The translations under genes were made by a program, and so were the position numbers. This document shows positions 3,236 to 50,747 of a stretch of DNA of 64,000 nt, one piece after another (within the stretch, counting starts at the first letter, position 1; each line of letters begins with the position of its first letter). Origin of the DNA: Escherichia phage EC.P2; the sequence record PQ631072.1; one strand, given 5' to 3'. The notes under the pieces are model-generated. The model was not told the DNA's origin and did not search any database. It worked only from the letters and a program-made list of their open reading frames with translations.

Positions 3236-3988
3236 TTAATATACTTCCGTGATAAACTGAGACAAACGGGAACGTTGGTTATCAGCAGTTGTCATTTCAA
3301 CATAACCAATAAAATCTACAATAGCTTCCCTTTCTCCTTCTTCGTTAATAGGAACAACACGATCTAACAAATCACCTAACCCATTAGCTCTTCGTTTAAT
3401 TGCATATGTTTGATTAACATCGCCCATAATGACAATACGTGTATTAAGACCTGCTCGCTCAAGGAGAAGTTTTACTGTGTTTGGTGACATAAGTTGAACT
3501 TCATCAATAAGAATAATGCTGTTATCCCACGTAGCACCTAGTGCATAGTTTGGAATATTAAGTTCAATTTTGCCACTTGCAATATCGTTTTCCAATTTAT
3601 TTGCAGTCATAAACTGTTGGAAAATTCGTTTAGTTGATTCGTAGTGTGCTGCTAGTTTATCAGTCTTATCTCCAGATAAGAAACCGATTTGGTCATCACC
3701 TACTTCTGTCGGGTTTTTAAGGAAAATCAACTTTCTGAAGTCACCAGCTTTAAGCATTTGTAATGCTTTCCATAGTGCTGTTGTCGTTTTTCCTGTTCCT
3801 GCTGGGGCATTAACAATGGTTAAATCATTCCAAACCATGCTTCTTACAATAGCTTCTTGATTCCCAACAGGGGTAAATTCATCAAGACGGTAATCATCAT
3901 TTCCTACTGCTTTAGCCGCATAACGACTGGCACGTTTGTCATCATTGGCTGCTGATTGACGACGAGCCTTTGCGGTTTTATTTCCCAT
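3236..3988 (-). CDS. phoH: PhoH-like ATPase
   Basis: 250 aa; Walker A VNAPAGTGKTTTAL and overall PhoH-family layout. Confidence 0.75.
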   Translation of the reverse strand: MGNKTAKARRQSAANDDKRASRYAAKAVGNDDYRLDEFTPVGNQEAIVRSMVWNDLTIVNAPAGTGKTTTALWKALQMLKAGDFRKLIFLKNPTEVGDDQIGFLSGDKTDKLAAHYESTKRIFQQFMTANKLENDIASGKIELNIPNYALGATWDNSIILIDEVQLMSPNTVKLLLERAGLNTRIVIMGDVNQTYAIKRRANGLGDLLDRVVPINEEGEREAIVDFIGYVEMTTADNQRSRLSQFITEVY

Positions 3989-3997
3989 GTTTGCACT

Positions 3998-4026
3998 CCT
4001 TATAAAAGGGGCTTTCGCCCCTTTGT
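3998..4026 (-). terminator. rho-independent terminator (palindrome AAAGGGGCTTTCGCCCCTTT)
   Basis: Perfect GC stem AGGGGC/GCCCCT at 4005-4024 flanked by T/A runs, between lysozyme stop and phoH start; the same 19-nt core recurs at 17092-17110. Confidence 0.55.
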
Positions 4027-4527
4027 TTAGTTATAAGCGTCTAATGTTCCAGTTTTAAGCACCTGAATTACACGCTCTGCGCGATTAGGCGTTTGGCGAT
4101 ACCATTTACTTTTACGTAAATTTATAGAGGCTTGAGTATAATATGAATTACTCACTAAAGTCAAGCTATTTTTGAAAGATTCTGCACCTTTCAATCCCAT
4201 TTGAAATACCATATTGATAATAGCCATTTTACGATTAGGACTTACTTTATCGTAAATAGGAGATAATATGGTACTTGAATGGATTTGTTGTATCGCTTTC
4301 TTTACGTCACCCTCAAAGATTTTTCTAGCTTCCGCTTCAGTAATAACCCCATTAGTTTTTCTACCTACTAAGTTATCAAGAATGCGTATAGCTTCTGATT
4401 TATCTTTAAGTTTTGTCAGAAGGTGTCCAATACCAACCGTCCAATACCCTTCGGTATCAGTATATACAGTTAGCTTTAGTCCTTCATCAAAACGTAACAT
4501 ATCAAACACATCAACTACTTTAGCCAT
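4027..4527 (-). CDS. T4 e-type lysozyme (GH24 endolysin)
   Basis: [39 protein letters not shown] closely parallels T4 lysozyme [35 protein letters not shown] (catalytic Glu, Asp, Thr in place). Confidence 0.85.
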   Translation of the reverse strand: [166 protein letters not shown]

Positions 4528-4539
4528 GTTTTCCTTATA

Positions 4540-4683
4540 TTAGTCGCCCTCCCCATGATCTAGCTCTTGAAACAGTAGGTGTTCAGGAGACATTTCACGT
4601 TTAGGCTTCGTCTTTTTAGTTTGGGACTTAAGCTCTGTTGCCAAAGCACGAGAAAAGATCTTACGTTTCTGTTTACCTTTCAT
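4540..4683 (-). CDS. small basic protein (47 aa)
   Basis: Unlisted short ORF MKGKQKRKIFSRALATELKSQTKKTKPKREMSPEHLLFQELDHGEGD with GGAG upstream, filling the gap between glutaredoxin and lysozyme. Confidence 0.35.
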   Translation of the reverse strand: MKGKQKRKIFSRALATELKSQTKKTKPKREMSPEHLLFQELDHGEGD

Positions 4684-4687
4684 ATTG

Positions 4688-4954
4688 TTACTCCGCAATC
4701 TGAGCCATGAATTCACGTAGTTCAGAAAAACCTCCTACGTGGGTTAGATGTTCACCATCTTCCACAAAAATTTGAGGGAAGGTACGTGGCAGAACACCTG
4801 TTTTCTCTAAAACCAGATTCTGAATCTGATCTAAAGAATAGTCTTCATCTAAGGTAAGGTATTTAAAATCCTGTTCACGCTGTTCTAGCAGAATTTTAGC
4901 GTTAGTGCAGAAAGGACAATTTGGTTTACCGTAGATAATAAAATTCATTTTCAC
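4688..4954 (-). CDS. glutaredoxin (likely RNR reductant)
   Basis: 88 aa, CPFC active-site motif near N-terminus (IYGKPNCPFC). Confidence 0.7.
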   Translation of the reverse strand: MKMNFIIYGKPNCPFCTNAKILLEQREQDFKYLTLDEDYSLDQIQNLVLEKTGVLPRTFPQIFVEDGEHLTHVGGFSELREFMAQIAE

Positions 4955-5781
4955 TCCTTGTTTAAAAGTATAGTTAAAGTTCTTACAATACCGCTATCAA
5001 CACTTCGCGGATTTAAAGTAGGATCTGTTTTTAAATAAGATGTTGCTGGTCTGACTGCTTTAGAATTATAGGTTGAAGCAGATACAGGATTAACTGTAAC
5101 AGATAAATCTATAACAAGAAATATCTTTCGTGCAAAATCATACCAAGAAATATAATCTGCACCTGCATAGTGTACAATTTTACTATTTACACCATCTTTT
5201 ACAAGTTTAAAAATTGTTTCTGCCAGATCAGGTGCATAAGTAGGACATGATAAATGATCACATACTACATTAAATTCTTTTTGACCACCGTTGTAGCGTT
5301 CCAACATAGTTTTCAAAAAGTTATGTCCAAACTCACTATAAACAGAAGCTGTTCTGATAATAAGTGCTGTAGGACAAACTGTTTGTACTAAAGTTTCACC
5401 TAATTGTTTACTGTAACCATAGGTGTTCAAGGGGTTTGTTTTACTATCTTCTGTGCCAGCGACATGCCCATCAAAAACATAGTCTGTTGAAATATGTACA
5501 AACTGTATCAGTAAATCATTACATGCTTTGGCAATGTTTGTTGCACCGTATGCATTAACATTTATACAGGTGTTAACATCTTCTTCAGCTTTATCTACTG
5601 CTGTGTAAGCCGCACAATTCACAACAACATCAGGCACGTGCTGTACAAGACTATTCATAACATCTTTAAAGTTGGTAATGTCTATATCACTTGCTTCAAT
5701 CAAAATAACATCTTCTGGCGCAACTTTTGCCAAAGACTGTCCTAATTGACCTTTTGAACCAAAGATTAAAAATTTTGTCAA
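4951..5781 (-). CDS. rmlD: dTDP-4-dehydrorhamnose reductase
   Basis: MTKFLIFGSKGQLGQSL...NCAAYTAVDKAEED...HISTDYVF...YGYSKQLGE parallels E. coli RfbD. Confidence 0.8.
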   Translation of the reverse strand: MTKFLIFGSKGQLGQSLAKVAPEDVILIEASDIDITNFKDVMNSLVQHVPDVVVNCAAYTAVDKAEEDVNTCINVNAYGATNIAKACNDLLIQFVHISTDYVFDGHVAGTEDSKTNPLNTYGYSKQLGETLVQTVCPTALIIRTASVYSEFGHNFLKTMLERYNGGQKEFNVVCDHLSCPTYAPDLAETIFKLVKDGVNSKIVHYAGADYISWYDFARKIFLVIDLSVTVNPVSASTYNSKAVRPATSYLKTDPTLNPRSVDSGIVRTLTILLNKE

Positions 5782-6332
5782 AATATGATCTCCTTTAGTG
5801 TTTTGGCTTGCTGATCTTTTTGTGACAAGATAGGTTTAAAATTAATATCATTAAAGATTAAATCAAAACCCCAATCTATATTGATATCTGGATCATTCCA
5901 CGCAAGACTACACTCTGAAGTCGGATCGTAATATTCTGTGCATTTATATTCAAAATCAGCAATATCGCTAATCACAACAAAACCATGAGCGAAACCAGGA
6001 GGAATCCAAAATTGTGTTTTATTCTTTTCAGATAAGAGAACACCTACCCATTCTCCAAATGTTGGACTACCAACCCTAATATCTACAGCAACATCATAAA
6101 CTTCACCACGAACACAACGTACTAACTTCCCTTGTGGGTTTTTCTTTTGAAAATGAAGCCCACGTAGAACTCCTCGAATAGAACGTGAATGGTTATCTTG
6201 GACAAAGTTTTGTTTACCTATGTATTGATCATATAAAGCCTGATTAAAACTTTCTAAGAAAAAACCACGTTCATCTCCGTAAACGTCAGGTTGAATGATC
6301 AACAAATCTTCGATTTTTGTTGCTTGAATCAT
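5778..6332 (-). CDS. rmlC: dTDP-4-dehydrorhamnose 3,5-epimerase
   Basis: 184 aa cupin; DERGFFLESFN...LRGLHFQ...FWIPPGFAHGF motifs typical of RmlC. Confidence 0.8.
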   Translation of the reverse strand: MIQATKIEDLLIIQPDVYGDERGFFLESFNQALYDQYIGKQNFVQDNHSRSIRGVLRGLHFQKKNPQGKLVRCVRGEVYDVAVDIRVGSPTFGEWVGVLLSEKNKTQFWIPPGFAHGFVVISDIADFEYKCTEYYDPTSECSLAWNDPDINIDWGFDLIFNDINFKPILSQKDQQAKTLKEIIF

Positions 6333-6344
6333 TTAACTCCCCCT

Positions 6345-7214
6345 TTATTTTAATTTAAGTAAATACTTACCGTAGTCTGTTTTACTTAAAACCTCTCCAG
6401 AACTTCTTACAGAGTCTAAAGTAATCCATTCATTTTTAAAAGCAATCTCTTCTAGGCATGCAACCTTCATCCCTTGTTGCTTTTCTATTGCATGAACAAA
6501 TTGAGATGCTTCCATAAGACTTTCATGTGTTCCTGTATCCAGCCAAGTGAAACCCCTTCCTAGTTTACAGACACGTAAAGTCTTTTCTTTCCAGTACATC
6601 TCATTTATATCTGTAATCTCTAACTCCCCTCTAGCAGAAGGTTTAACGCTCTTAGCTTTCTGTATAACAGAATTATCGTAAAAGTACAAGCCTGTGATTG
6701 CATAGTTGCTTTTTGGTGTTTTTGGTTTTTCTTCAATACTCACCACTGTACCTTCAGAATCAAATTCAACAACACCAAATCTTTCAGGATCATTTACGTG
6801 ATACCCAAAAATATTAGCTCCACCATTCTTTTCAATATGTTCTTTAGCAGAATCTAAAATGCTACCAAAACTCTGACCAAAGAATAAATTATCACCTAGC
6901 ACAAGTGCTACAGAATCTTCACCAATAAAGTTCTCACCAATAATAAAGGCTTCTGCTAAACCTTTTGGGCTGTTCTGTACTGCATACTGTAGGGAAATAC
7001 CAAAAGAAGAACCATCACCTAGAAGATTTACAAAATTAACTTGATCTTCTGGTGTTGTAATTATTAGTATTTCCCTAATTCCAGAAAGCATTAGGACAGA
7101 GAGTGGATAATAAATCATAGGCTTATCGTAAATTGGTAATAGTTGTTTACTAACCCCTTTAGTAACTGGGTAAAGTCTTGTTCCACTACCACCTGCTAAG
7201 ATAATACCTTTCAT
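6345..7214 (-). CDS. rmlA: glucose-1-phosphate thymidylyltransferase
   Basis: [39 protein letters not shown] nearly identical in pattern to E. coli RfbA N-terminus. Confidence 0.85.
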
Positions 7215-7222
7215 ACTCCTCC

Positions 7223-8212
7223 TTAAACTTTATTTTCCCACCACTCTTTGTTATCTACATACCAATCAATGGTTGAATAAAGTTTTTCTTCAAATGTGCC
7301 TTTAGCTTTCCACCCTAATTCCTTTTCAATCTTATAAGGATTCACTTCGTATCTTAAATCATGCCCAGGTCTATCTGTAACCATCTCAATGAGGCTACAA
7401 GCATCTGTTTCAGATGGATACACCGCATCCATATAATCACAAATCATATAGATTACATCAATATTAGTTCTAGGGTTTCTGCTTCCAATATTATATGTTT
7501 CTCCAGGTTTGCCTTTAGTTACTACTAGGTGTAATGCTTCTGCGTGATCGTCAACGTATAACCAATCTCTTACTTGAAGACCATTACCATAAACAGGGAT
7601 TGGTTTATGCATCAAGATATTTGTTATCGTTTTAGGTATTAGTTTTTCTGGATGATGATATGCTCCAAAATTATTTGAACAATTTGTTATAACTGTCGGA
7701 ACACCATAAGTACGATGCCACGCTCTTACCAAATGATCGCTTGCTGCCTTAGATGCAGCATATGGACTACTTGGCTTATAAGGATTCTGTTCTGTAAACG
7801 GATAATCCCCTTCTTCCAGATCACCATACACTTCATCTGTTGAAATATGATGGAACATTTTAAGATTTGATTTATCTCCCATTAAACGAACAGCTTCTAG
7901 AAGATTAAATGTCCCAACAATATTTGAATTTATAAAAACACTCGGTGATGCTATTGAATTATCTACGTGACTTTCTGCTGCAAGATGCATTATATAATCT
8001 GGATTAACATCTGCCACAATCTTAGCAGTTAACTGCGCATTTGTCAAGTCAACACGACAAAACTTTACATTAGGTGTTTCTGATAAATTTCTAGGGTCTG
8101 AAGCGTAACCCCATTTATCTATAACGTAAATATCATTCTTAGTATTTTTAGCCAGGAAACGAACTACTGCACTTCCAATAAAGCCTAAACCACCTGTTAC
8201 TAAGTATTTCAT
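7223..8212 (-). CDS. rmlB: dTDP-glucose 4,6-dehydratase
   Basis: [19 protein letters not shown]...[13 protein letters not shown]...[11 protein letters not shown] matches RfbB/RmlB SDR pattern. Confidence 0.85.
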
Positions 8213-8406
8213 TTAGTCTCCTTCCAATTATTTCCTTCAGTAAAAATAATACCTTCATAAAACAACCATCTGGAACCTTTTTCAACAGGAACAGGAATCT
8301 CTTCTTCAGTAAAGTTATAAACCTCTCTAGCATCTTCTAAAAGTGATGCAAATGTTTTTGGACTTACTGTTACGCGAGGAGCATTGATCAGTCGATCTAG
8401 CATCAT
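8209..8406 (-). CDS. hypothetical protein (65 aa; start trimmed to ATG at 8406 with AGGAGG RBS)
   Basis: Track ORF 8209..8499 overlaps upstream gene; internal ATG at 8406 has a strong RBS. Confidence 0.4.
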   Translation of the reverse strand: MMLDRLINAPRVTVSPKTFASLLEDAREVYNFTEEEIPVPVEKGSRWLFYEGIIFTEGNNWKETK

Positions 8407-8419
8407 TCTACTATCCTCC

Positions 8420-8746
8420 TTACCAAACGTGTTGAGAAATAATAGTTTCCGTTTCAATGTTATATTTTTCAAGAAGTTGTACGTAGGCTTCTTTTGCATT
8501 CTTATTTAGTTGCTCAAGATCTACAGCTATACTTCCTTCGCCACCTTCTAAATAAATGCCATATATGCAATAAGATTCATCAGCATCATAGAAAGGAGAG
8601 ATACGACTTAAATCAAGACCTTCTTGTAAGAACCAGTTCAAATCTCCATCAAATTCTTCTTCAATTTTAGGATCTTCTCCTACAGCCTCTTCCCATTTAT
8701 TAAAAGGTGCACCCTGTAACATACGCCATGCAATATCAACTCCCAC
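8420..8746 (-). CDS. hypothetical acidic protein (108 aa)
   Basis: ORF; start ATG overlaps stop of upstream mini-gene. Confidence 0.45.
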   Translation of the reverse strand: MGVDIAWRMLQGAPFNKWEEAVGEDPKIEEEFDGDLNWFLQEGLDLSRISPFYDADESYCIYGIYLEGGEGSIAVDLEQLNKNAKEAYVQLLEKYNIETETIISQHVW

Positions 8747-8882
8747 TATCTTCCTCCTCTTCTTTTTCTTCTGTATGAACGAAACCTAAGCCGTTACAAT
8801 TCCAACAAGGAATAAATTGTTCCATACTAACAATAAAATTCCCAGTACCACCGCAGACAGGACAAATACTTACATCGTCCAT
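8739..8882 (-). CDS. DnaJ-type zinc-finger mini-protein (47 aa)
   Basis: Unlisted ORF MDDVSICPVCGGTGNFIVSMEQFIPCWNCNGLGFVHTEEKEEEEDSGS: CPVCGGTG is the CxxCxGxG repeat of DnaJ zinc fingers, second CxxC follows; GAGGAG RBS. Confidence 0.45.
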
Positions 8883-8884
8883 TA

Positions 8885-9091
8885 TTAAAGCTCCTCAATC
8901 TTTTCTAACATCTGTTTTAACTCATTCTCTGTTAACAGAATTTCTGTGATACCATCATAAGTTTCTACCATCAGAGTAAAACATTTCTCTCCATCTGAAC
9001 ACACAAAAGCGCCACCTTCATCTTCTGTTAAGTCAGAATTAATATCTACATCAACAAAATCAATCATCTTTTTCTCCTTTGATAATTTCAA
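8885..9091 (-). CDS. hypothetical protein (68 aa)
   Basis: ORF in operon array. Confidence 0.4.
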   Translation of the reverse strand: MKLSKEKKMIDFVDVDINSDLTEDEGGAFVCSDGEKCFTLMVETYDGITEILLTENELKQMLEKIEEL

Positions 9092-9278
9092 ACTTGGCTA
9101 CACCATTAACTATAATATGACCGCAAGACATAACTCCTAGCCAATGATCACCATTCTTTTTTAAACGTTTGCCGTAAACATCACAGAAACCATTCTGTAA
9201 TTCGGAAGCCTCATAAGAGGCTCCCTTTTCGAAAACGTCTTTGAAGTCAGAAATTAATCCAACACAAAGTAGTTTCAT
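9060..9278 (-). CDS. hypothetical protein (72 aa)
   Basis: ORF immediately downstream of nrdB. Confidence 0.4.
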   Translation of the reverse strand: MKLLCVGLISDFKDVFEKGASYEASELQNGFCDVYGKRLKKNGDHWLGVMSCGHIIVNGVAKFEIIKGEKDD

Positions 9279-10363
9279 TAGAAGTCTAACTCCTCGTCAT
9301 CACTTACATCTTTATTTGCTGAATTCAGTTTGTAAGCTGTAATTTGGATCTCCTGTGCTGCTGCTTGAATTTGATCTGGATTTAACCAAACATCCATCCA
9401 AGGCAGTGGACTTTTCTTCGGTGCACGGAATTTGTGTTTCATTTTCAGTCTGCGATAGATAGGTGCAGCATTGAAGTAAACCCAAAGTTTGAACAACTCT
9501 GCGTTACCACCAACGATAACCCTTCCTTCACTAAACAAATAGTCACACCAATCTTCCTCTTGTCCAACTACCGTATCAAGAATTTCTGTCAGAACGTCGA
9601 TATTATCTTCGTATACTTTTCTCCAAACAGGATCTTTCAGCAGTGCATCAATAATAGCATAATCCATTTTAACGTGCAATAGTTCATCCAACATAATTTT
9701 TTGAATGAGTTTAGCTGCACCTACAAACAATTGCTGCTCTGCTAAGGCAAATGTTGCAGCAAAAGAGGATATGAATTGAATGCCTTCCAGACCGATAAGT
9801 GCAATCATTCCTTTCAAGATCAGTAGACGAAGGTTATCATCCTTCTCAATCAGACCTAGAGCATATTTATGTCCTGCCTCTGCCAGATCACCCATTATCT
9901 CTTCAACTATACCCATCCTCTGGAAGATTCTTTCATTCTCCATAATCTGATCGATAACTTCATTTGGATTAGGGATACACTGACGAATAATTTCAGAATA
10001 TGTCAAAGCGTGTAAAACTTCCATTTCTGATTGCTTCATCATCATTGCACATGCTTCGTTGTTGCTTAAAAATGGTGCAAACAAAGTGATAATTGATTTA
10101 GCAAGTGAATCATTTTCCCATTGGAAAGATAGGTTTTTGATCATAACATCATAGTTGCTTTTAGAACAAGCTACGAAATCTTTTCGTGTCTGATCTAAGT
10201 CTACTTCGTTTTCATCCCAATCTTGCTGTTTTTGTAGTTTGTACAGACGATGCATTTCTGGGTATGTTACATTAATAGAATCAAAAATACCTAACTGTTC
10301 TCCCAAAAATACAGGATAGAAACCTTCTTTGTAAGTGTCGTTGTATAAATTAATCGCTGCCAT
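9278..10363 (-). CDS. nrdB: ribonucleotide reductase class I beta subunit
   Basis: 361 aa; diiron-carboxylate ferritin-like pattern and size, adjacent to nrdA. Confidence 0.8.
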   Translation of the reverse strand: MAAINLYNDTYKEGFYPVFLGEQLGIFDSINVTYPEMHRLYKLQKQQDWDENEVDLDQTRKDFVACSKSNYDVMIKNLSFQWENDSLAKSIITLFAPFLSNNEACAMMMKQSEMEVLHALTYSEIIRQCIPNPNEVIDQIMENERIFQRMGIVEEIMGDLAEAGHKYALGLIEKDDNLRLLILKGMIALIGLEGIQFISSFAATFALAEQQLFVGAAKLIQKIMLDELLHVKMDYAIIDALLKDPVWRKVYEDNIDVLTEILDTVVGQEEDWCDYLFSEGRVIVGGNAELFKLWVYFNAAPIYRRLKMKHKFRAPKKSPLPWMDVWLNPDQIQAAAQEIQITAYKLNSANKDVSDDEELDF

Positions 10364-10684
10364 TTAAATCCTCCACAATATCACACATTGCTTTTATTGT
10401 ATCAATGTGTTTTCTCTCCATACCATTCTCTATGTAAGCCTTCTCTAATGCGTTCCATACACTCTTTGTGAGTAGTACAGTAACCTCTCCGTCATATCTT
10501 GCCCTGGTTAAAGCATACCAGGTAGCTTCTGGATCATTGGAAGCCCATATTTCAACACTGGAAAATTGAAAACCTGCAATATAATGGCAACACCAATCGA
10601 ATGTAAAATCTTTACTATCTACCAGTGTATAATTTCCCCAACGTCTTTGTGGTGTTGCCCCAGGTAATACAACTAATGTAGGCA
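10350..10684 (-). CDS. hypothetical protein between nrdA and nrdB (111 aa)
   Basis: Track ORF trimmed to ATG at 10684 preceded by AAGGAGG; begins MPTLVVLPGATPQRRW. Confidence 0.45.
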
Positions 10685-10725: not shown

Positions 10726-12987
10726 TTACATCTTACAAGCCTCACAACCAGATTCTTCATCTTCTTGAGCGAGTGAGGTTGCCGATTTTGTTCTACTATT
10801 TAGATAGTACAAAGATTTACCACCAAGTTTTGCAAACTGAAGGATATATTGCATTTCTGATTTAATGGATAAACGACCACCTTCCATTTTAGAATAGTCA
10901 ATCCACTTATCACATGATGCACCTTGATCTAAGAATTTAGTCAATAATCCATATGCTTCAGCCATATCTTTATCTGGCGTATCCCAAGCCGATTGGTAAA
11001 TATCTTTTAGTTTATCATAGTCTGGCACAATAAACAGGACATTACCTTTTTGGCTTTGTTTATAAACTATAGTATCACGTACAGGATACACAGAGTTAGT
11101 CGTATTACTTACAAGACTACTGGACTCATTCGGAGCAATAGCTGCTAATACGCTATTTCGGATACCGCCTTGTGCAATGATATCTTGTCGTAAACCTTCC
11201 CAATCCATTTTAAGTTTAAAATTGCCAATATCGTCTACAGCTTTAGCGTAGGTGTCAATAGGCAACCATCCTTCAGGCCATTTGGTTTTATGCATCCATT
11301 CTGCATTACCCTTCTCTTTTGCCAAACGAAGAGAAGCTCTTGCTAACCAGTAATAATGCCTTTCTGCTAATTCGTGAATTAGTTTTTTGCCGTAAGGATC
11401 TGAATAAGTAACAAAATTACTTGCCAGATAATGTGCAAGGTTTGTAATACCTACACCGATAGACCTACGTGCTTTAGCAGTGATTTCGTTATGTTTAAAC
11501 GGATACTGCATTGTTTCAATAACATTATCAATAGTTAGAACTGTATAGTATGCAACATCTTCATATTCTTCTGGTGTAACACGACCAGCTACAATAGAAG
11601 ACAGGAAGCATAATGCCAATTCTTGATCTTCTGTATTCTCACCTGTGAAAAGATCAGTCATATTGTGAAATGCTTTCGTAGGTAAGAAAATTTCTTGACA
11701 CAAGTTTGACTGATAAATAACATCCTTAAACGGAGTATGCCTATTAGCATTATCCGCAAAGAACATATAAATACGTCCTGTCTCTGCTCTTTGTGTAATA
11801 ATTTCTGCCAGAAGATCTCGTGCTTTTACGAACTTTTTCTTAATTCGTTTGCGACTAACTTTTTCATATACTTCTTCAAACTCTTCCTCGCTTTTATAAA
11901 GCGCCTCATAGAGTTCTGGTGCTTCGTCATAACTAACTAGCATCCAATCTTTACCTTTTGCTGCACGGCGCAGGAAAGCATTGTTTACTACGATAGAGTA
12001 ATCAAGTTTATCTACTCGTTTTTCACTAACAGTAGTTGGGTTTTTCAAACGTACCAGATCTTCAAAATCAGGTTCTAATATTGTAAACGTTACTGTTGCA
12101 CTTCCACCACGACTTGCTTGTTTTGATGCTCCAACACTTGTTTCCATCCATTTCAGATATGGTAAAAGACCACCGTGAACGATACGGTTGTTCTTAACAC
12201 CTTGTCCTGTGGCACGGGTTTGGAGGTTAACACCAATACCTGCATTATTCAATGTATATTCATGCGCAAGATAGTTAGCAATTGCTAAAGATTCTGCTGT
12301 ATCATCTGCTCTAAACAGACAACAAGAAGCACTACCTTTAATCTTAGTACGCAAAGTTGTTAAATAAGGTGATGGTAAATTAATCTTAAGATCACTTACG
12401 TAGGTATATAGACGTTTAATGTCTTCTACTCTGCGATCTTTTGGTTGGATTTCCATTACCTTCATTGCTACACCAATGAATAAAAACTGTGGTGATTCAA
12501 AAACAACATCATTGATCGCATCTTTCACAAGATACTTATCAACCATCTGGCGCAGTACGGAATAACCATAAGTTAGGTTTTTATCGTGATTGACAATCTT
12601 ACCAATCTCAATAATTTCTTCTTCTGTATAATCCATTTTTCCCCAATAGCCTTTACTTACAGACATATTGTAGAAATCCAGGAGGGAGGGGATATTGTGA
12701 TATCCCCCATGAGCCTGTTTATAAATCATACCAAGAAGTAACCGACCTGCCATATCACTATATGCCTGATCTTTCTTATCAATACATGCTGCTATCATAG
12801 CTTTATGTAAATCACGAGTAGGCACACCATCGTAACAACGTTTAACAGCTTCAAGTTCAATTTCAGACCAATTTAATTTACCAGCAGCAAACTCTGACCA
12901 TTTACGAAGTTTTTCTGGATTAAATTCTTCTTTCTTGCCGTTTGTTTTTGTTACATAACGGATAGATTTGCTTAGATACTGAGTCAC
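10726..12987 (-). CDS. nrdA: ribonucleotide reductase class I alpha subunit
   Basis: 753 aa; N-terminal ATP-cone-like region and C-terminal tail with paired cysteines (ESGCEACKM), typical NrdA size. Confidence 0.85.
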   Translation of the reverse strand: MTQYLSKSIRYVTKTNGKKEEFNPEKLRKWSEFAAGKLNWSEIELEAVKRCYDGVPTRDLHKAMIAACIDKKDQAYSDMAGRLLLGMIYKQAHGGYHNIPSLLDFYNMSVSKGYWGKMDYTEEEIIEIGKIVNHDKNLTYGYSVLRQMVDKYLVKDAINDVVFESPQFLFIGVAMKVMEIQPKDRRVEDIKRLYTYVSDLKINLPSPYLTTLRTKIKGSASCCLFRADDTAESLAIANYLAHEYTLNNAGIGVNLQTRATGQGVKNNRIVHGGLLPYLKWMETSVGASKQASRGGSATVTFTILEPDFEDLVRLKNPTTVSEKRVDKLDYSIVVNNAFLRRAAKGKDWMLVSYDEAPELYEALYKSEEEFEEVYEKVSRKRIKKKFVKARDLLAEIITQRAETGRIYMFFADNANRHTPFKDVIYQSNLCQEIFLPTKAFHNMTDLFTGENTEDQELALCFLSSIVAGRVTPEEYEDVAYYTVLTIDNVIETMQYPFKHNEITAKARRSIGVGITNLAHYLASNFVTYSDPYGKKLIHELAERHYYWLARASLRLAKEKGNAEWMHKTKWPEGWLPIDTYAKAVDDIGNFKLKMDWEGLRQDIIAQGGIRNSVLAAIAPNESSSLVSNTTNSVYPVRDTIVYKQSQKGNVLFIVPDYDKLKDIYQSAWDTPDKDMAEAYGLLTKFLDQGASCDKWIDYSKMEGGRLSIKSEMQYILQFAKLGGKSLYYLNSRTKSATSLAQEDEESGCEACKM

Positions 12988-13767: not shown

Positions 13768-14739
13768 TCACCATTTTGTATGGTTCGTCAAAAGTTGACG
13801 ATGTTGAATCCAACCACAGAAGTTTCCACTCCACAAACGATGTTTACGATCCATATGTGTAATACCTTCTTCCCAAGAGGAAGGGAACGGAGGAATATTA
13901 ATACCACCTTTCTGTTGTTTTAATCCTGACAAATCCATTTCTTTCATTGGCGTTGCCTGGTGTTCAAACGGAGATGCATGTACCTTTTGTCCAGACAGCA
14001 AACGAGAATAGATATCCAATGCTTTATCTTTAGTATCATTCAACTTACGATAACTTACCTGAGCGCAACAAGAAGCTGAAATAGCTTTTGCTTCATCTTC
14101 TGTCAACACTTTCTCGTTGGAGAAGGTTTCACCCAAGAAATAACGGATCATACCAGTTTCTGGATCTCGATCACGATTAACGTAAGGTGTATGCCATTCC
14201 CCTGGGAAAAGAAGATATGGTTCAGAAGATTCATACAGTTTTTTAATTTCTTTAGCAAGAGCCTCAATAGTAGGATCTGCATCAGCATCTACGCGCAACC
14301 ACAAGAAGTTTTCTAGCTCTGTAGTGGTTACTACAGTCTTCATACGCTGAAATGGTTCTAGTAGGCGGTTTGCAACCTGTTTATGATAACCAGCAAGGGC
14401 AAACTCTTCTGCAAAACGTGCAGCACTTAGTGCAGCCAAGTCCCACCATTCTTTTGCAGTATAACCTGCATCAATCAGGGCATCGTGATCTGTGCCTTTA
14501 TCTTGCATACCTGGTTGGTTAGCACCAAAACGATAAGGACGTGCTGGAGATTGCCGTACCATTTCAATCAGAGTTTTAACAGGGATAGCTCGACTTGATG
14601 CGGCATTACGAGAAAACAAACGATGCGTCATCAATTCAGAGTGAATGATTCGAGGATATTCAAGTTCAAAGGTAACAATATCCTTACCTTCGGATGTTTG
14701 AGAGTGTGCAATAATTTTTGCTGAAATAGAATTTGTCAT
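13768..14739 (-). CDS. thyX: ThyX-like flavin-dependent thymidylate synthase (divergent)
   Basis: 323 aa; HSELMTHRLFSRNAASSRAIP resembles the ThyX RHRx7S signature but with Thr in place of the first Arg. Confidence 0.6.
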   Translation of the reverse strand: MTNSISAKIIAHSQTSEGKDIVTFELEYPRIIHSELMTHRLFSRNAASSRAIPVKTLIEMVRQSPARPYRFGANQPGMQDKGTDHDALIDAGYTAKEWWDLAALSAARFAEEFALAGYHKQVANRLLEPFQRMKTVVTTTELENFLWLRVDADADPTIEALAKEIKKLYESSEPYLLFPGEWHTPYVNRDRDPETGMIRYFLGETFSNEKVLTEDEAKAISASCCAQVSYRKLNDTKDKALDIYSRLLSGQKVHASPFEHQATPMKEMDLSGLKQQKGGINIPPFPSSWEEGITHMDRKHRLWSGNFCGWIQHRQLLTNHTKW

Positions 14740-14748: not shown

Positions 14749-15339
14749 TTAAGGTAGTAAAATACTTTCAATTTCTTCCCACTGATTATCTAAACCAGTG
14801 ATAATTACATTAGGAAGTTTCTTTAACTCTTCCAAATATGGATCTTCGTAAATAGTGTTGAAATATATTTTCAACGTTTCATCTGGAAACAGGACAAGAT
14901 TTTCAGCCCTATCGTCAATAGTTACATCGCAAGGTAATAAGTATTTTTCTTTTGTTGCGAAAAAGCCATTACCAGATGTTCTACTAAAATCCACTTTATC
15001 TAAAGATCGTGTTACGTGTCTATATTTAGAACTAAGGTGTCCACCCTTAGTGTGGCTCGCTATAGATATATTAGCTCCATTTGCAATTATACGATGAACA
15101 ACATCTGTACTATTAGGTACTACTCCCATAGTATCATATAGATGTTGGTTATCCCAAAAAGAGTAAGGATCTACACCAAATTGCTTTTTAAAATCAGGGA
15201 AATATTTCGTAATATCATAGTGCACAGTCTTATGTGTCTTATCAAATTTGATATTAGATCTACTTACCGCATTTAACCAATTTAACCATTCTATATCCGC
15301 TGGAGCTATTACTAAATCCCAATCACATACTAGACGCAT
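14749..15339 (-). CDS. HAD-superfamily phosphatase, probable 5'(3')-deoxyribonucleotidase
   Basis: Start trimmed to ATG at 15339 (AGGAGA RBS); N-terminal MRLVCDWDLVIA fits HAD motif I DxDx(T/V); C-terminal DD motif (VTIDDRAENL). Confidence 0.5.
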   Translation of the reverse strand: MRLVCDWDLVIAPADIEWLNWLNAVSRSNIKFDKTHKTVHYDITKYFPDFKKQFGVDPYSFWDNQHLYDTMGVVPNSTDVVHRIIANGANISIASHTKGGHLSSKYRHVTRSLDKVDFSRTSGNGFFATKEKYLLPCDVTIDDRAENLVLFPDETLKIYFNTIYEDPYLEELKKLPNVIITGLDNQWEEIESILLP

Positions 15340-15886
15340 TATTTCTCCTGTTATAACATTTTCTACACATTGTTTCGTAAATGTCTTCTCCTCCAATAAC
15401 AATCTGTTCTTTAGAGTCGATAAGTCTAGCATTGAAAATAGCTTTTCTTCCACATTTACAAATGCTTTTCAATTCTGTAATTGAATCTGCTATGGCTAAT
15501 AACCGTTCAGAACCTTCAAACAATTCTGTAGCAAAATCTGTTTTAAGTCCATAGCAGAATACAGGAATATCGTAATTGTCTACCACATCTCCAAGAATGT
15601 CAACCATATCTTTAGTTAGGAATTGTGATTCATCCACAAATACTGCATCTACTGGATTCTCTTTAAGTTGTGTATAAATTTCCAGCATATCTTCTTTTGT
15701 TTTAACTGGTTTTGCTTCCTCTTTAATACCTATTCTAGAAGCAATAGCACCACCAGATCTGGTATCTAAAGCTGAAGTTAAAAGAAGAACTTTCATATTT
15801 CTTTCTTTATAGTTCCAAGCTGTTTGTAGAAGATGTGTGCTTTTACCACTGTTCATCGGACTATATCGGAAATAAAGTTTAGCCAT
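15323..15886 (-). CDS. tdk: thymidine kinase
   Basis: MAKLYFRYSPMNSGKSTHLLQ P-loop and C-terminal CxxC zinc ribbon (CRKCYNRR) typical of Tdk. Confidence 0.85.
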   Translation of the reverse strand: MAKLYFRYSPMNSGKSTHLLQTAWNYKERNMKVLLLTSALDTRSGGAIASRIGIKEEAKPVKTKEDMLEIYTQLKENPVDAVFVDESQFLTKDMVDILGDVVDNYDIPVFCYGLKTDFATELFEGSERLLAIADSITELKSICKCGRKAIFNARLIDSKEQIVIGGEDIYETMCRKCYNRRNNASSM

Positions 15887-19487: not shown

Positions 19488-20372
19488 TTATTTTTGAATA
19501 GTTGACTTGATAAGGTCTTGCATAATACCACGGATTTCGTTAAAGCACAGAAGGACAGATGCTTCAAAAGATCCTTCTTCATCATTAAAGTATTTAGGGA
19601 ATTTAATACCACTCAACTTAAATTCTTTATCAACAATAAAGTTAACGAAGCCGTCATATTCCAGGCCAATGGCAACAACGTGCTTACCATCTTCCATAAG
19701 TTCTACTGCACGAGATTCATAAAGGGACTCTTTACTCCATACAACCACACCTTCCGAATCTTCAAGTTTAATATAATTACCCAGGGTCAGTCGTTCAGCT
19801 TCATGTTCTTCTAAGATGGTATCAAAACCTTTAATAATCGCTTCTTCGTGTACACTAAACGGCAGAACTGGGAAAGTACCCAACACCTCACGAAGAAATA
19901 CAGCAATATCTTCACTAATTTTCTTAGTACCATTAAGAACATAGGTAATACTGTTTTCAGTGTCTACAACAACATAGTTATAGAAATCATCTGCCTCTGT
20001 TTCTGGGAGCAAAGAAAACACAATATCAGCCTCAATTGCTTTTTTACTTTCTTTGTCCAAGAAAAACTCTTTGGTAGGATTTGCAGCAATAAACTCTTGT
20101 TCCATTTCCTGGAGCTTTTCATTAAGAATGCGTTTAACTTTCTTCTTGTTAACTTTCTTAACAGACTGCCCTACTTTAATAACCTCTAAACCAGAGAACA
20201 CTTTTACATAGGAACCATCATCTTCAAAACGAACAAGACCAATGGTATGTGCTTGTTGCCCCTGTGCCACAACAAAATCCAGCGGTTTGTCTGTTACTGT
20301 GTTCAGTGCTGAAATAGACAGACCATCACCAGAAATCAGGGTTACGCAAGATTTGAAATTTTTAGCAAACAT
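19488..20372 (-). CDS. rdgC: RdgC-like recombination-associated protein
   Basis: Start trimmed to ATG at 20372 (GAGGAG RBS); MFAKNFK... and DTENSITYVLNGTKKISEDIAVFLREVLGTFPVLPFS parallel E. coli RdgC MLWFKNL... / [37 protein letters not shown]. Confidence 0.6.
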   Translation of the reverse strand: MFAKNFKSCVTLISGDGLSISALNTVTDKPLDFVVAQGQQAHTIGLVRFEDDGSYVKVFSGLEVIKVGQSVKKVNKKKVKRILNEKLQEMEQEFIAANPTKEFFLDKESKKAIEADIVFSLLPETEADDFYNYVVVDTENSITYVLNGTKKISEDIAVFLREVLGTFPVLPFSVHEEAIIKGFDTILEEHEAERLTLGNYIKLEDSEGVVVWSKESLYESRAVELMEDGKHVVAIGLEYDGFVNFIVDKEFKLSGIKFPKYFNDEEGSFEASVLLCFNEIRGIMQDLIKSTIQK

Positions 20373-20382
20373 AGTTTTCTCC

Positions 20383-20661
20383 TCAAATAACAACTACAAA
20401 ATATTTTACACCATCATATTCGACAATATGATCAGGATATTTAAATCCTTTATAAGATTTACCAAACAGACTAACAGCTTCATTAGCTTTGTTTTGCGGA
20501 TTACTCAACCACTGTTCTTCTGTGTAAAACTTAAATTCTGTTCTCTTACCTTCTTTTTCTAAACCAACAATTTCCTGTGTGATATCTTCAATACCTGCAT
20601 TCTTCAAGGATTTGATTACCTGACGCAAACCGTGTTTAAAGATATCTTCTGCTGTTAACAT
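20383..20661 (-). CDS. hypothetical protein (92 aa)
   Basis: ORF. Confidence 0.4.
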   Translation of the reverse strand: MLTAEDIFKHGLRQVIKSLKNAGIEDITQEIVGLEKEGKRTEFKFYTEEQWLSNPQNKANEAVSLFGKSYKGFKYPDHIVEYDGVKYFVVVI

Positions 20662-20697
20662 AATACCTCCAATAAGCCCCCGAAGGGGCTTTATTTC

Positions 20698-21420
20698 TTA
20701 AGCAATGATTGCTGCGATATTAGGTTTAACAAAGGTAGATGGTTTCATAATTTTACCTTTGTCATCAAAGAATACGTATACCTTTTGAACTTCGTTATAT
20801 ACAGCATGTACTCCAGTATAAGAACCTTCTGCACGATCTTTGCTTCGCATCTCGATAGCATCACACTCTTTTTCAAGAGCTTCAACAATATCCTTAGTTT
20901 CCCAAATAGCCAGGAGTTGCTTCTTGGTAGGATACTTGGACTCATTGCTATTCAACACTTCACGCATAACCTTCTTCTCGTTATAAACAGAACGCACCAA
21001 AGTATCTCGTGCCATACGTGTAAGTGTAAGAGACATTAGGGCAAATTGCAAGTCATTTTCTACCATTTTATCAAATTCAATGATAACATCGTAGATGTTT
21101 TCTGCCAGAACATCTCCTGTCGGCATTTCCAGAGCTTTATCAACACCTTCTTTACCAAAGAACATAAACGCCAGGTAGGATGCTACCACAAAAATATCTG
21201 CTGCTGCATCAAGTAATTCAACGTGATCATTTTCCTGTGCTGCTGCTTGGAACTCTTTTAGTTCTTCTCGTACAAAAGAAAGTTGAGCTTCAAACATCTC
21301 TTGAGTAAATTCTGGGGTTACGCCACCACGTGCCTTAGCATTCCAAGCAACAATTTGATCGGCAGCCTTGATAAAGAAGCTATTGTCCACTTTTACTTGT
21401 TTGAAAAAATTCTCGATCAT
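20698..21420 (-). CDS. MazG-like nucleoside triphosphate pyrophosphohydrolase
   Basis: EELKEFQAAAQENDHVELLDAAADIFVV matches all-alpha NTP-PPase EExxE...E...DxxxD metal-binding pattern. Confidence 0.55.
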   Translation of the reverse strand: MIENFFKQVKVDNSFFIKAADQIVAWNAKARGGVTPEFTQEMFEAQLSFVREELKEFQAAAQENDHVELLDAAADIFVVASYLAFMFFGKEGVDKALEMPTGDVLAENIYDVIIEFDKMVENDLQFALMSLTLTRMARDTLVRSVYNEKKVMREVLNSNESKYPTKKQLLAIWETKDIVEALEKECDAIEMRSKDRAEGSYTGVHAVYNEVQKVYVFFDDKGKIMKPSTFVKPNIAAIIA

Positions 21421-21429
21421 TGTTTCTCC

Positions 21430-21609
21430 TTATTTAAAATATTGTTCTAACAAAACACTAATGCGAACTACCGATTCGCCCATATACGCCCCAGCACAGA
21501 GGAAAACAATAAATCTACAAAAATTGCAGTACCATTTGTCCACTGGAAACGAGCCTAACATTATAATTGCAATAGCAATTAACATCATAAGAACTGTTAC
21601 TAATACCAT
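21430..21609 (-). CDS. small membrane protein (59 aa)
   Basis: Unlisted ORF MVLVTVLMMLIAIAIIMLGSFPVDKWYC..., hydrophobic helix, AGAGGT RBS. Confidence 0.35.
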   Translation of the reverse strand: MVLVTVLMMLIAIAIIMLGSFPVDKWYCNFCRFIVFLCAGAYMGESVVRISVLLEQYFK

Positions 21610-21618
21610 ACTTACCTC

Positions 21619-22734
21619 TTACTCTGCTGGCTCCCAAGTACCTGGAATCATCTTACGTAAACGGACACCTGTTGGTTTAGTAGGTATTCCACCATCGGAA
21701 AACTCTTCATACTCAATCTCAACAAATTTACCAATTAACATTTCAGCATTTTCTGCTTTACGATAGTTAATGGTTTCATCTGAATCCTTACGCATCAGGA
21801 ATTCGACTACTTTACCATTTTCCATCTCGCCTGTCAATACCCCGTCACCATTTTTATCACGTTTTGCACTTACCACCTTAACTTCAAGCGTCTGCCGTGG
21901 TTTACGTTTAATAACATCATAAGAACGTTTATCAAACTCGTAAACACCTTGTGCATTACGATAAACAACACCTTCAGCTTTCTCACGCAGAGCTTTTGCA
22001 TAGAACGCATCAAACTGCTCTTGGTTTTCAATGTACTCTGTATGCACTACACAAATAAGTTCATCTAAACCTTTATCTTCAACTACTTCTTTTAGAGCAG
22101 CCAAAACTTCAACCCTCTTCTCAAATGGTACAGATGGTACAGGAACATCATATACATAGTATTTAAGAAGCGGAGTGTTAGCATTATGCTTTTTCCACGC
22201 ACTATTAATTTGTTGAAGGCTAAGGACACCCAAACCAGCAAAAACTTCACCGTCAAGAGGATGACCAACTACTTCTTTAATGAAGGTTGGAATTTCTTTC
22301 CAGTGAGGTGGAAGTTTATATACTTCCCCAGCTTTAGATAAGCATTCACCTTGCATGTTAATCATTGAACGTAGACCATTCAATTTATATTGTGCATAAC
22401 CTGGGAACAAAACACGATCAGCATAATCTTTATAATCCTGACATTTCATGGGTGTGGAAGGAACATGGTTTTCAGCTTCCTCTTTTGTTTTATAATACCC
22501 ATTCTTAAGTTGCTTTGTCCATTTGGCAAGAGCTTCGATTTCAGCTTGTTCTTCTGCTGTTGTTTCATTTGAGCGACCAATATTTTTAGGTTCTGCTGTA
22601 TAAGATTTGCTAGTAATCTTTCCACCTAATTGACCATGAGCAACAGTTACAACACTACCTTCGGTATAGACTGACCACTGTTTAATTTTACCTGTAGAAG
22701 TTTTACCATATAGTGTAGGATTAGTTTGTTTCAT
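21619..22734 (-). CDS. ATP-dependent DNA ligase
   Basis: Start trimmed to ATG at 22734 (GGAGGT RBS); motif I YKLNGLR (KxDGxR-type adenylation lysine). Confidence 0.7.
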   Translation of the reverse strand: MKQTNPTLYGKTSTGKIKQWSVYTEGSVVTVAHGQLGGKITSKSYTAEPKNIGRSNETTAEEQAEIEALAKWTKQLKNGYYKTKEEAENHVPSTPMKCQDYKDYADRVLFPGYAQYKLNGLRSMINMQGECLSKAGEVYKLPPHWKEIPTFIKEVVGHPLDGEVFAGLGVLSLQQINSAWKKHNANTPLLKYYVYDVPVPSVPFEKRVEVLAALKEVVEDKGLDELICVVHTEYIENQEQFDAFYAKALREKAEGVVYRNAQGVYEFDKRSYDVIKRKPRQTLEVKVVSAKRDKNGDGVLTGEMENGKVVEFLMRKDSDETINYRKAENAEMLIGKFVEIEYEEFSDGGIPTKPTGVRLRKMIPGTWEPAE

Positions 22735-47350: not shown

Positions 47351-47830
47351 TTGGATAAAATGCTTACTGGCGTAATGGCCTATGATCCTTCTCAAGTAAT
47401 CCTGTCTTTGGGTGGTTGGGAACCTTGGGGTTTCGCCGCAGATACCAAAATTGTTATTAACAAAACTAACGATATCATCAACCCATATTCAGGTACTGAT
47501 GGTGACGTTTCCTTGGCGCTTAGTCGTAACCGTTTAGGTACGCTAACAATGTCACTGCAACGTACTTCCCCAGCAAACGAAGTTCTTGCTGCTTATGCAC
47601 AAACGATGTATTCTACTCGTCAAGTAGCATTTAGCGTATATCTAGAAGACCCTCGCGGATATTATATCAGCACAATTGGTTGGATTCAAAGCCAACCGGA
47701 CGATACTATTGGTGAAACTATTCAAGAAAACCAATGGGTAATTGGTCTTAAAGATGCAAGCCTACTTCGTTCTACTGTAGGTGTTGGTGTTAACGCACTT
47801 AACTCTATTAGTGCTCTAACTATTCAGTAA
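47351..47830 (+). CDS. tail tube protein
   Basis: 159 aa, TTG start after AAAGGAGA, between sheath and chaperone genes. Confidence 0.55.
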   Translation: MDKMLTGVMAYDPSQVILSLGGWEPWGFAADTKIVINKTNDIINPYSGTDGDVSLALSRNRLGTLTMSLQRTSPANEVLAAYAQTMYSTRQVAFSVYLEDPRGYYISTIGWIQSQPDDTIGETIQENQWVIGLKDASLLRSTVGVGVNALNSISALTIQ

Positions 47831-47832
47831 TA

Positions 47833-47862
47833 AAAAGGGCAGAAATGCCCTTTATTTTTAAA
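47833..47862 (+). terminator. rho-independent terminator after tube gene
   Basis: AGGGCA-GAAA-TGCCCT hairpin followed by TTATTTTTAA. Confidence 0.65.
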
Positions 47863-47875
47863 GAGAGAGGAAATA

Positions 47876-48358: not shown

Positions 48359-48405
48359 GTCCGGCAATTAAATCAGCAATTGAAATTGCCTCACAAACCC
48401 TTAGC

Positions 48406-48633: not shown

Positions 48634-48652
48634 GTAATACGGAGGATTACCC

Positions 48653-50632: not shown

Positions 50633-50637
50633 TGCAT

Positions 50638-50668
50638 AAAGCCTCGCTTCGGCGGGGCTTTTTATTTG
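50638..50668 (+). terminator. rho-independent terminator after tape measure
   Basis: GCCTCGC-TTCG-GCGGGGC hairpin followed by TTTTTATTT. Confidence 0.7.
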
Positions 50669-50670
50669 TC

Positions 50671-50700: not shown

Positions 50701-50747
50701 GAGTGATAAGGGAGAATGTTTCTTATCACATTAAGAGGTAAAATTAT

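Follow-up and report, generated by a model that had tools for sequence, protein, structure and literature searches.

Why should a lytic phage make its own activated rhamnose, and to what would the sugar be attached? This question is raised by four minus-strand genes, rmlB-rmlA-rmlC-rmlD, which encode a complete dTDP-L-rhamnose pathway in the 64,000-nucleotide stretch of Escherichia phage EC.P2 DNA analyzed here (sequence record PQ631072.1; the whole stretch is called the window). An earlier reading of the window from its letters (the original prediction) had described these genes and called their purpose unexplained. The four-gene finding is already known and not novel, because the genes are annotated in >100 GenBank phage records and have been discussed in two papers. 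Olsen et al. [quoted passage not shown] Maffei et al. 2021 (PMC8594841) described phi92-like phages as "exceptionally susceptible" to restriction-modification systems despite "a putative dTDP glycosylation machinery". In the literature searched, no paper resolving the function of phage rml genes was found, and their purpose thus still stands as unexplained. What our analysis adds is evidence on which host capture and gene inactivity were rejected, an insertion history, a variant with rmlC and rmlD only, probable partner glycosyltransferases, and a ranking of acceptors in which DNA comes last. The best explanation overall, to which we give just short of an even chance, is that a long-resident, functional Rml pathway and phage glycosyltransferases together build a rhamnose glycan on an acceptor other than DNA, with a virion protein as the leading candidate.

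The four enzymes are complete and intact

The rml region shares 98-99% DNA identity with 55 records of Justusliebigvirus (phi92-like phages, Stephanstirmvirinae), which confirms that it is carried by a phage. The window is collinear with Escherichia phage PaulScherrer (Bas60, MZ501100), corresponding to positions 114255-150425 and 1-28263 of that genome. The only gaps in the megablast alignment, at window positions 20209-21620, 34112-34251 and 60303-61999, reflect small indels in the early and tRNA regions and a variable part of the lateral tail-fiber genes.

All four proteins passed the curated NCBIfam equivalog cut-offs against which the family calls were judged, and Pfam agreed in each case. 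RmlB scored 441.6 bits with TIGR01181 (cut-off 365.1), RmlA 474 bits with TIGR01207 over its full length (residues 2-288; cut-off 360.65), RmlC 260.4 bits with TIGR01221 (cut-off 155.75) and RmlD, by a modest margin, 253.6 bits with TIGR01214 (cut-off 224.05). Salmonella enterica enzymes were the top solved-structure relatives of RmlA (1iim, full-length, E 3.6e-125), RmlB (1g1a, E 1.8e-116) and RmlC (1dzr, E 6e-64), and those of RmlD were Bacillus anthracis RmlD (3sc6, E 3.5e-44) and Clostridium enzymes (E ~1e-44). Every catalytic motif checked was intact: GGSGTRL, SKQL, LGDN, EKP and WLDTG in RmlA (at residues 8, 22, 106, 162 and 224), GGLGFIG, TDE and YAASK in RmlB (7, 125 and 151), RGLHFQ, GKLV and YKCTEYY in RmlC (57, 68 and 129), and GSKGQLG, STDYVF and YGYSK in RmlD.

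The ratio of non-synonymous to synonymous substitution rates (dN/dS) was 0.035-0.093 relative to PaulScherrer (40 synonymous and 10 non-synonymous differences). Synonymous sites were saturated in the comparison with phAPEC8 and Citrobacter phage Tr1, in which all open reading frames (ORFs) were intact and protein identity was 62-77%. Given the intact motifs and the dN/dS of 0.04-0.09, we reject the view that the genes are pseudogenes or encode inactive enzymes.

Furthermore, the Glu of the EEIAF motif is kept in the phage RmlA enzymes. It corresponds to E256 of S. enterica RmlA, the allosteric residue through which dTDP-rhamnose exerts feedback (PMC10375476). Since this residue is kept, a regulated flux is likely, and we saw no sign of deregulation; a deregulated RmlA was rejected on the same ground. 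In another part of RmlA, at residues 108-116 (window positions 6880-6900, minus strand), the phage enzymes of three genera share a lineage-specific FGQS, where enterobacterial RmlA has YGHD (GDNIFYGHDL). This segment near LGDN presumably borders the allosteric pocket.

The genes are also tightly packed. The stop of the upstream ORF overlaps the rmlB start by 4 nt (ATGA), the gaps between rmlB and rmlA and between rmlA and rmlC measure 8 and 12 nt, and rmlC shares 4 nt with rmlD. A separate GGAG-type Shine-Dalgarno sequence precedes each of the four genes; that of rmlD, AAGGAG, is placed 8 nt upstream of its TTG start. We conclude that the four genes are translationally coupled or nearly so, in line with the coupled minus-strand set at positions 4951-8212 originally described, the coordinates of which are exact. 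Within the rml block, neither promoter-like sites (22 versus 23.6 +/- 3.9 expected) nor terminator-like sites (1 versus 2.9 expected) were in excess, and the block is part of a long co-directional minus-strand region with negative GC skew over window positions 1-28000. Therefore, rml is a coupled segment of a longer block and not an autonomous operon.

Long residence of the rml genes and insertion history

The original prediction had also considered a recent host-derived insertion with host-like codon usage. This was not what we found. The rml operon query had a match in each of the 5426 complete E. coli genomes, at 65-68% DNA identity and covering about half of the operon. The gene order is B-A-C-D in the phage versus rfbB-rfbD-rfbA-rfbC in E. 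coli, and protein identity to one E. coli set was 52% for RmlB, 62% for RmlA, 56% for RmlC and 32% for RmlD, the most divergent of the four. Relative synonymous codon usage of the rml genes correlated at r = 0.91 with that of the other window genes and at r = -0.11 with that of E. coli, the latter computed with a hand-entered codon table. The GC content at third codon positions was 0.19-0.23 in the rml genes, and its window mean was 0.27. Recent capture from the host as a moron is rejected in view of the DNA identity, the gene order, the codon usage and the conserved synteny across genera.

In phAPEC8 and Tr1, the locus has an identical arrangement: nrdA, nrdB, a few small ORFs, rmlB-A-C-D, glutaredoxin (grx), a small ORF, lysozyme and PhoH. 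The ORF at the downstream boundary is annotated as glutaredoxin in phAPEC8, and a similar-sized unannotated ORF is found there in Tr1 and in Klebsiella phage KP2025. The small ORFs flanking rml in the window had PHROGs matches to families of unknown function only; a 327-nt ORF directly upstream of rml in phAPEC8 and KP2025 was matched to the 108-aa ORF of the window by length alone. Vequintavirus WalterGehring belongs to the sister group and has the same nucleotide-metabolism block. There, nrdB abuts the glutaredoxin gene, with neither rml nor the small-ORF segment between them. This adjacency, together with the shared rml locus, indicates that rml is a lineage-specific insertion into an ancestral nrdAB-grx block. 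Judged by synteny, the insertion is common to the whole subfamily Stephanstirmvirinae, and by the comparisons above the rml genes are long resident in the phage lineage.

An IMG/VR scan with RmlD matched only two near-identical contigs. Four Campylobacter phage records (MG065639, MG065645, MG065656 and MG065689) are 98% identical Justusliebigvirus genomes, and therefore their host label is probably wrong. "Acinetobacter phage MD-2021a" (CAKLQH020000002) was discarded as an independent case of phage rml, since its contig 2 is bacterial chromosome with glnE, ilvE and aspS around rml.

A variant with rmlC and rmlD only

In KP2025, rmlC and rmlD alone occupy the nrdB-grx site, and tblastn detected no RmlA or RmlB anywhere in the 149.5-kb genome. 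Keeping only the last two steps, KP2025 must draw on dTDP-4-keto-6-deoxyglucose from its host. This compound is the product of RffH/RffG in the enterobacterial common antigen (ECA) pathway, and the match of the operon query to 5426 of 5426 E. coli genomes agrees with such a supply. The rmlCD-only state thus argues that dTDP-L-rhamnose itself, and not dTTP consumption, is the selected product.

This bears on the view that there is no dedicated acceptor and that the genes are a recent host moron, an inactive remnant, a sink for dTTP or glucose-1-phosphate, or a means of perturbing host glycan or nucleotide pools. RmlA does consume dTTP, rml adjoins dTTP-supply genes, and hyperactive RmlA in E. 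coli was described to deplete thymidine pools and stop O-antigen synthesis (PMC12773781). However, the genes are neither recent nor inactive by the criteria of the preceding sections, a sink would need RmlA alone yet four steps are kept, KP2025 retains rmlC-rmlD without RmlA, and the conserved allosteric Glu does not indicate deregulation. We consider this view highly improbable. The thymidylate-supply neighbors pointed out in the original prediction (ribonucleotide reductase [RNR], ThyX-like and Tdk) are all present, and in terms of cost it is reasonable that rml should be coupled to the supply of thymidylate. In summary, the rml pathway is very likely functional and selected for its end product.

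A homolog of rfbD was detected in 2154 of the 5426 complete E. coli genomes, a rough count that is bounded by the sensitivity of blastn. With rfbD in so few genomes, a pathway of its own frees the phage from the host serotype. Placed within the early/middle nucleotide-metabolism block, rml would provide the donor sugar in any host, whatever its O-antigen genes. Such independence fits the very broad host range of phi92-like and phAPEC8-like phages, which is among the broadest of coliphages. Such phages already serve in therapy, and more are being isolated for it.

Glycosyltransferases beyond the window

According to the original prediction, no glycosyltransferase is recognizable in the window. 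This is true of the 64 kb, in which tblastn revealed no homolog of the PaulScherrer enzymes described below, but it is an artefact of where the window ends. The search of the rest of the genome that had been proposed as a check was possible in the collinear PaulScherrer. About 20 kb past the window end, and adjoining primase/helicase and DNA polymerase genes, this genome has four genes for glycosyltransferases (bas60_0048-0051; 47580-50756, minus strand). Two of the enzymes in this module are GT4-like and of the GT-B type, and the other two are small DxD enzymes of the GT-A type. One product, bas60_0051, represents a family restricted to phages, in which a DxD motif is invariant and which has no Pfam match. 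No hydrophobic segment was found in any of the four proteins.

The distribution of the module follows that of rml. In Justusliebigvirus, the rml operon was detected in 55 records, the GT-A gene bas60_0050 in 55 (at least 95% identity) and the GT-B gene bas60_0048 in 53, and all three were found again at 60-80% identity in 71-77 Phapecoctavirus-like records. Vequintavirus was absent from the matches listed for rml or the glycosyltransferases, though a search with NrdB showed that this genus is in the collection. KP2025 has, beside rmlCD, orthologs of bas60_0051 (75%) and bas60_0049 (66%). Its gene content therefore defines a conserved core of RmlC, RmlD, one DxD transferase and one GT-B enzyme.

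Distant uncultured phages show the same synteny, with a bas60_0050-like GT-A, a GT-B, a small ORF, primase/helicase and DNA polymerase A. In these phages, an RmlB-like NDP-sugar 4,6-dehydratase (193 bits with TIGR01181, below the cut-off) adjoins the glycosyltransferase pair or lies 1.5 kb away. Further distant homologs belong to large cassettes of sugar genes, in which DegT aminotransferases, radical-SAM enzymes and methyltransferases are accompanied by more glycosyltransferases. From this co-occurrence and context, dTDP-rhamnose probably feeds the phage glycosyltransferases.

Directly downstream of the glycosyltransferase genes, PaulScherrer carries a Ter-type gene set of the stress or nucleoside-like-metabolite kind (52.7-62.1 kb) comprising TerD, a vWA-TerF-like protein, TelA, TerC, a macrodomain protein, a phosphoribosyltransferase and a HAD hydrolase. 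The genes upstream of the KP2025 glycosyltransferases include, in the same order, those for TelA ("toxic anion resistance protein"), vWA and TerD (L016, 179-3342), and the annotation places an integral membrane protein, a macrodomain protein and a putative hydrolase close by.

Possible acceptors of a rhamnose glycan

In the explanation that we favor, the phage RmlA, RmlB, RmlC and RmlD would convert glucose-1-phosphate and dTTP via dTDP-glucose, dTDP-4-keto-6-deoxyglucose and dTDP-4-keto-rhamnose to dTDP-L-rhamnose, and the phage's own soluble glycosyltransferase module would use this donor to build a rhamnose-containing glycan. By analogy with glycosylated mycobacteriophage virions, the acceptor would be one or more virion proteins. 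The nearest relatives of bas60_0050 in cultured phages outside the subfamily are ~60 mycobacteriophage glycosyltransferases (tblastn, 25-30% identity, E 1e-6 to 1e-8). Phage Pacc40, whose gp98 is homologous to bas60_0050 and which is the sole mycobacteriophage record with checked taxonomy, is a Cheoctovirus, and glycosylated capsids have been reported for the F1-cluster Cheoctovirus phages Che8 and Rita (PMC11256854). The nearest relatives of the GT-B are in Streptomyces phages, in which an epimerase-methyltransferase-glycosyltransferase cassette abuts the terminase, portal and capsid genes. Similarly, a distant bas60_0051 homolog is part of a cassette with UDP-galactopyranose mutase, GT2, a deacetylase and methyltransferases between terminase and portal/capsid genes. 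These actinophage and capsid-neighbor relatives are hints toward a virion-protein acceptor. While the acceptor is very probably not DNA, we give a virion protein, proposed by analogy, somewhat less than an even chance. It is possible, but to us doubtful, that the Stephanstirmvirinae coliphages have a self-sufficient cytoplasmic system, with their own dTDP-L-rhamnose and two to four soluble glycosyltransferases, for decorating virion proteins.

Several points weigh against the virion-protein explanation. The glycosyltransferase cluster is known from collinear relatives, the window ending short of it, and lies ~70 kb from rml; the two loci are linked by co-occurrence and by context in other phages. 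Moreover, the GT-A bas60_0050 has a sub-threshold TAGT match (PF20691, E 6.7e-5; 23.3 bits versus a cut-off of 27.5), and the position of the cluster beside replication genes across divergent phages can be read as a DNA link. The output and expression of the pathway and a glycan on virion, DNA or host are so far predictions from the genes. Freeman et al. are said to have reported in 2023 little evidence of virion glycosylation outside the actinophages. Finally, Ser/Thr-rich C-termini, used as a sequence proxy for acceptor tails, do not follow the module. The tail sheath (window positions 45886-47292, plus strand) has a Ser/Asn/Thr-rich C-terminus (NRTANSQNSNSSTVSS), and KP2025 shares this tail (NRTSNSTTSNSSTTSS), but the Ser/Thr-rich tail is absent from Vequintavirus and phAPEC8 (the sheath ends at NRTAN). 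Since phAPEC8 has the full module and lacks the tail, the sheath C-terminus was dropped as a candidate O-glycosylation tail. A Gly/Ala/Ser/Thr-rich C-terminal tail of the portal protein was seen in all three lineages compared (window, KP2025 and Vequintavirus).

Sugars on DNA bases have precedents in the glucose of T-even phages and the arabinose of RB69. The hypothesis of Olsen et al. 2020, already in print (PMC7552041), is that glycosyltransferases move rhamnose onto a hydroxylated or hydroxymethylated pyrimidine in the phage DNA, by which nucleases would be evaded. In agreement with this, both rml and the glycosyltransferases lie among DNA-metabolism and replication genes, and the synteny of glycosyltransferase, primase-helicase and polymerase is kept in distant phages. 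In addition to the TAGT match, the GT-A weakly matched phrog_842, the beta-glucosyl-HMC alpha-glucosyltransferase family (E 5e-5), and the GT-B enzymes have a generic fold similarity to T4 AGT and BGT. Up to three sugars per base are possible in phage DNA (PMC13326640), the phage Dcm-like C5 methyltransferase could in principle feed a TET route, and the ThyX-like protein (323 aa, with a partial Thy1 match) is divergent, THRLFSRNAASSR replacing the canonical RHR...S motif (THR for RHR). However, the known glycosylated pyrimidines need a ThyA-family hydroxylase/hydroxymethylase and a dNMP kinase, or TET (PMC13326640). No ThyA-family enzyme, dNMP kinase or TET/JBP was found in the PaulScherrer annotation or in Pfam scans, which took in the 30 largest unannotated PaulScherrer proteins and not every small ORF. 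Vequintavirus, which is without rml and these glycosyltransferases, likewise has the ThyX-like gene; the phage Dam-like, Dcm-like and N6 methyltransferases act on canonical bases; and it is actinophages, rather than T-even phages, that carry the closest phage homologs of the glycosyltransferases. The exceptional restriction susceptibility of phi92-like phages, a phenotype taken from the literature (PMC8594841), also argues against modified DNA. DNA is the least supported of the three uses proposed in the original prediction, and we regard its rhamnosylation as improbable.

Alternatively, rhamnose could be put on a lipid-linked or lipopolysaccharide (LPS)/ECA acceptor at the inner membrane, a remodeling of the host envelope that could block superinfection or the adsorption of progeny to debris. 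This stays a serious rival because lipid-linked or LPS acceptors are the substrates of many of the GT-B fold matches, although on balance we find it rather unlikely. The phages recognize several surface glycans and LPS core glucose (PMC8594841), rhamnose is described in the literature as a natural, non-stoichiometric component of K-12 core glycoforms, altered RmlA activity shifts O-antigen expression in E. coli (PMC12773781), and cyanophages have NDP-sugar clusters with a presumed envelope function. On the other hand, we saw no phage flippase, polymerase, ligase or initiating transferase, the glycosyltransferases are without hydrophobic segments, Vequintavirus has the same terminal receptor yet lacks the module, and homologous cassettes in other phages adjoin capsid and portal genes. 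Seroconversion systems, moreover, are typical of temperate and not of strictly lytic phages.

The Ter-type genes raise the possibility of another soluble acceptor, namely a non-structural protein of host or phage, an RNA, or some small molecule such as a nucleoside-like metabolite, with a role in counter-defense or signaling. A nucleoside-like metabolite has been proposed for Ter/phosphoribosyltransferase/HAD clusters, and Ter genes with macrodomain, phosphoribosyltransferase and HAD genes accompany the glycosyltransferases in both PaulScherrer and KP2025. The solubility of all four glycosyltransferases suits such an acceptor. Its basis is purely genomic context, however, the glycosyltransferase families occur without Ter genes in other phages, and we know of no precedent for rhamnosylated counter-defense molecules. 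We judge this alternative unlikely.

Neighboring genes and side observations

The coordinates of the rml genes and their neighbors are listed in Table 1.

Table 1. Positions of the rml genes and surrounding features in the window
Feature	Position	Strand	Basis
rmlB, dTDP-D-glucose 4,6-dehydratase, 329 aa, step 2	7223-8212	-	TIGR01181, structure match, motifs
rmlA, glucose-1-phosphate thymidylyltransferase, 289 aa, step 1 (consumes dTTP)	6345-7214	-	TIGR01207, structure match, motifs
rmlC, dTDP-4-dehydrorhamnose 3,5-epimerase, 184 aa, step 3	5778-6332	-	TIGR01221, structure match, motifs
rmlD, dTDP-4-dehydrorhamnose reductase, 276 aa, TTG start, step 4	4951-5781	-	TIGR01214, structure match, motifs
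Glutaredoxin/NrdC-like, downstream boundary of inserted segment	4688-4948	-	phrog_22 thioredoxin domain (E 1e-19), annotation
Five small ORFs (65, 108, 48, 60 and 72 aa) between nrdB and rmlB	8209-9278	-	PHROGs
nrdB, class Ia RNR beta, upstream boundary of inserted segment	9278-10363	-	ORF, annotation
NrdA	10726-12987		ORF
ThyX-like	13768-14739	-	Thy1 PF02511 (E 4e-9)
Tdk	15323-15886		ORF

Between the ThyX-like gene and Tdk, we noted a weak NT5C-like deoxynucleotidase (14749-15453, minus strand; E 9e-5, below the cut-off), and at ~20700-21420 (minus strand) a MazG/PRA-PH-like NTP pyrophosphohydrolase, a homolog of bas60_0235. Both proteins may shape dNTP pools. A terminator-like hairpin, the sole one in 3900-10500, is located at 4005-4024 between PhoH and the endolysin gene (AAAGGGGC-TTTC-GCCCCTTT). 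It was called on the plus strand; since its stem is palindromic, it could function on either strand. Sixteen tRNA genes, three of them of the tRNA-Met(CAT) type, are clustered at window positions 31704-34592 (plus strand), and in PaulScherrer the annotation places genes for PRPP synthetase and nicotinamide phosphoribosyltransferase (NAD salvage) just upstream of this cluster. Outside the window, the unannotated PaulScherrer protein bas60_0110 (80610-82013, plus strand; 467 aa) has four CapR-homology domains (E 3e-46) and a T5orf172 domain.

Significance and comparison with known systems

Every phi92-like or phAPEC8-like phage spends ~3.3 kb on the donor pathway and ~3.2 kb on glycosyltransferases. 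If the product is a virion glycan, phage glycosylation would extend beyond the actinophages and would be described for the first time for a phage of Gram-negative bacteria, with a bearing on antibody recognition and immunogenicity, pharmacokinetics, stability and host range of therapeutic phages. A glycan on DNA or on the host envelope would represent a new kind of hypermodification or exclusion. Candidate transferases can now be named, with rmlC-rmlD and the bas60_0049/0051-type transferases as the conserved core and DNA as the least likely acceptor.

We know of no precedent for a dTDP 6-deoxyhexose as a donor for DNA. The comparators for DNA glycosylation are the T4 alpha- and beta-glucosyltransferases acting on 5-hydroxymethylcytosine and the arabinosyl-5-hydroxycytosine of RB69, DLP3 and HY126 (PMC13326640). 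Unlike in these systems, the phi92-like glycosyltransferases have no tblastn relation to those of T-even phages, the phages are restriction-sensitive, and no ThyA-family enzyme, dNMP kinase or TET was found within the PaulScherrer annotation and the 30 proteins scanned.

The bacterial RmlABCD enzymes (rfbBDAC of E. coli and Salmonella; the "rhamnose pathway" of Giraud and Naismith) belong to the same four families and have the same catalytic motifs and RmlA allosteric Glu. The phage set differs in being carried by a lytic phage, in its B-A-C-D order, in its 32-62% identity to the E. coli proteins and in an RmlD that is closer to Firmicutes structures. Its site, between nrdB and glutaredoxin, is not an O-antigen or capsule cluster as in bacterial rfb, and the glycosyltransferases are ~70 kb away.

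Among giant viruses, Mimivirus synthesizes UDP-L-rhamnose with R141 and L780, and chlorovirus PBCV-1 has capsid glycans with rhamnose and the glycosyltransferase A064R. Like the phage system, these viruses combine their own activated rhamnose with virus-encoded GT-A-type transferases, and their particles are decorated independently of the host. Theirs is a two-enzyme UDP-L-rhamnose route in eukaryotic hosts, in contrast to the four-enzyme dTDP route of the phage, and the likeness drawn here is one of strategy.

Another comparator is virion glycosylation in Cheoctovirus (cluster F1; Freeman et al. 2023, Cell Host Microbe, as summarized in PMC11256854), in which soluble phage glycosyltransferases are also encoded away from the structural genes, with remote homology to those described here. 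The phi92-like phages differ in their Gram-negative host, in encoding a complete donor-sugar pathway and in having no conserved Ser/Thr-rich C-terminal tails that track the module; the Cheoctovirus capsids are reported to be glycosylated, whereas the phi92-like system is so far described at the gene level. Finally, the rml element of EC.P2 is the same as the phi92 gp065-068 region, phAPEC8_00100-00103 and PaulScherrer bas60_0210-0213, from which it differs in nothing substantive. It is conserved at 98-99% DNA identity in Justusliebigvirus and at 62-77% protein identity with the same synteny in Phapecoctavirus and Tr1, and KP2025 represents its reduced variant with rmlC-rmlD only.

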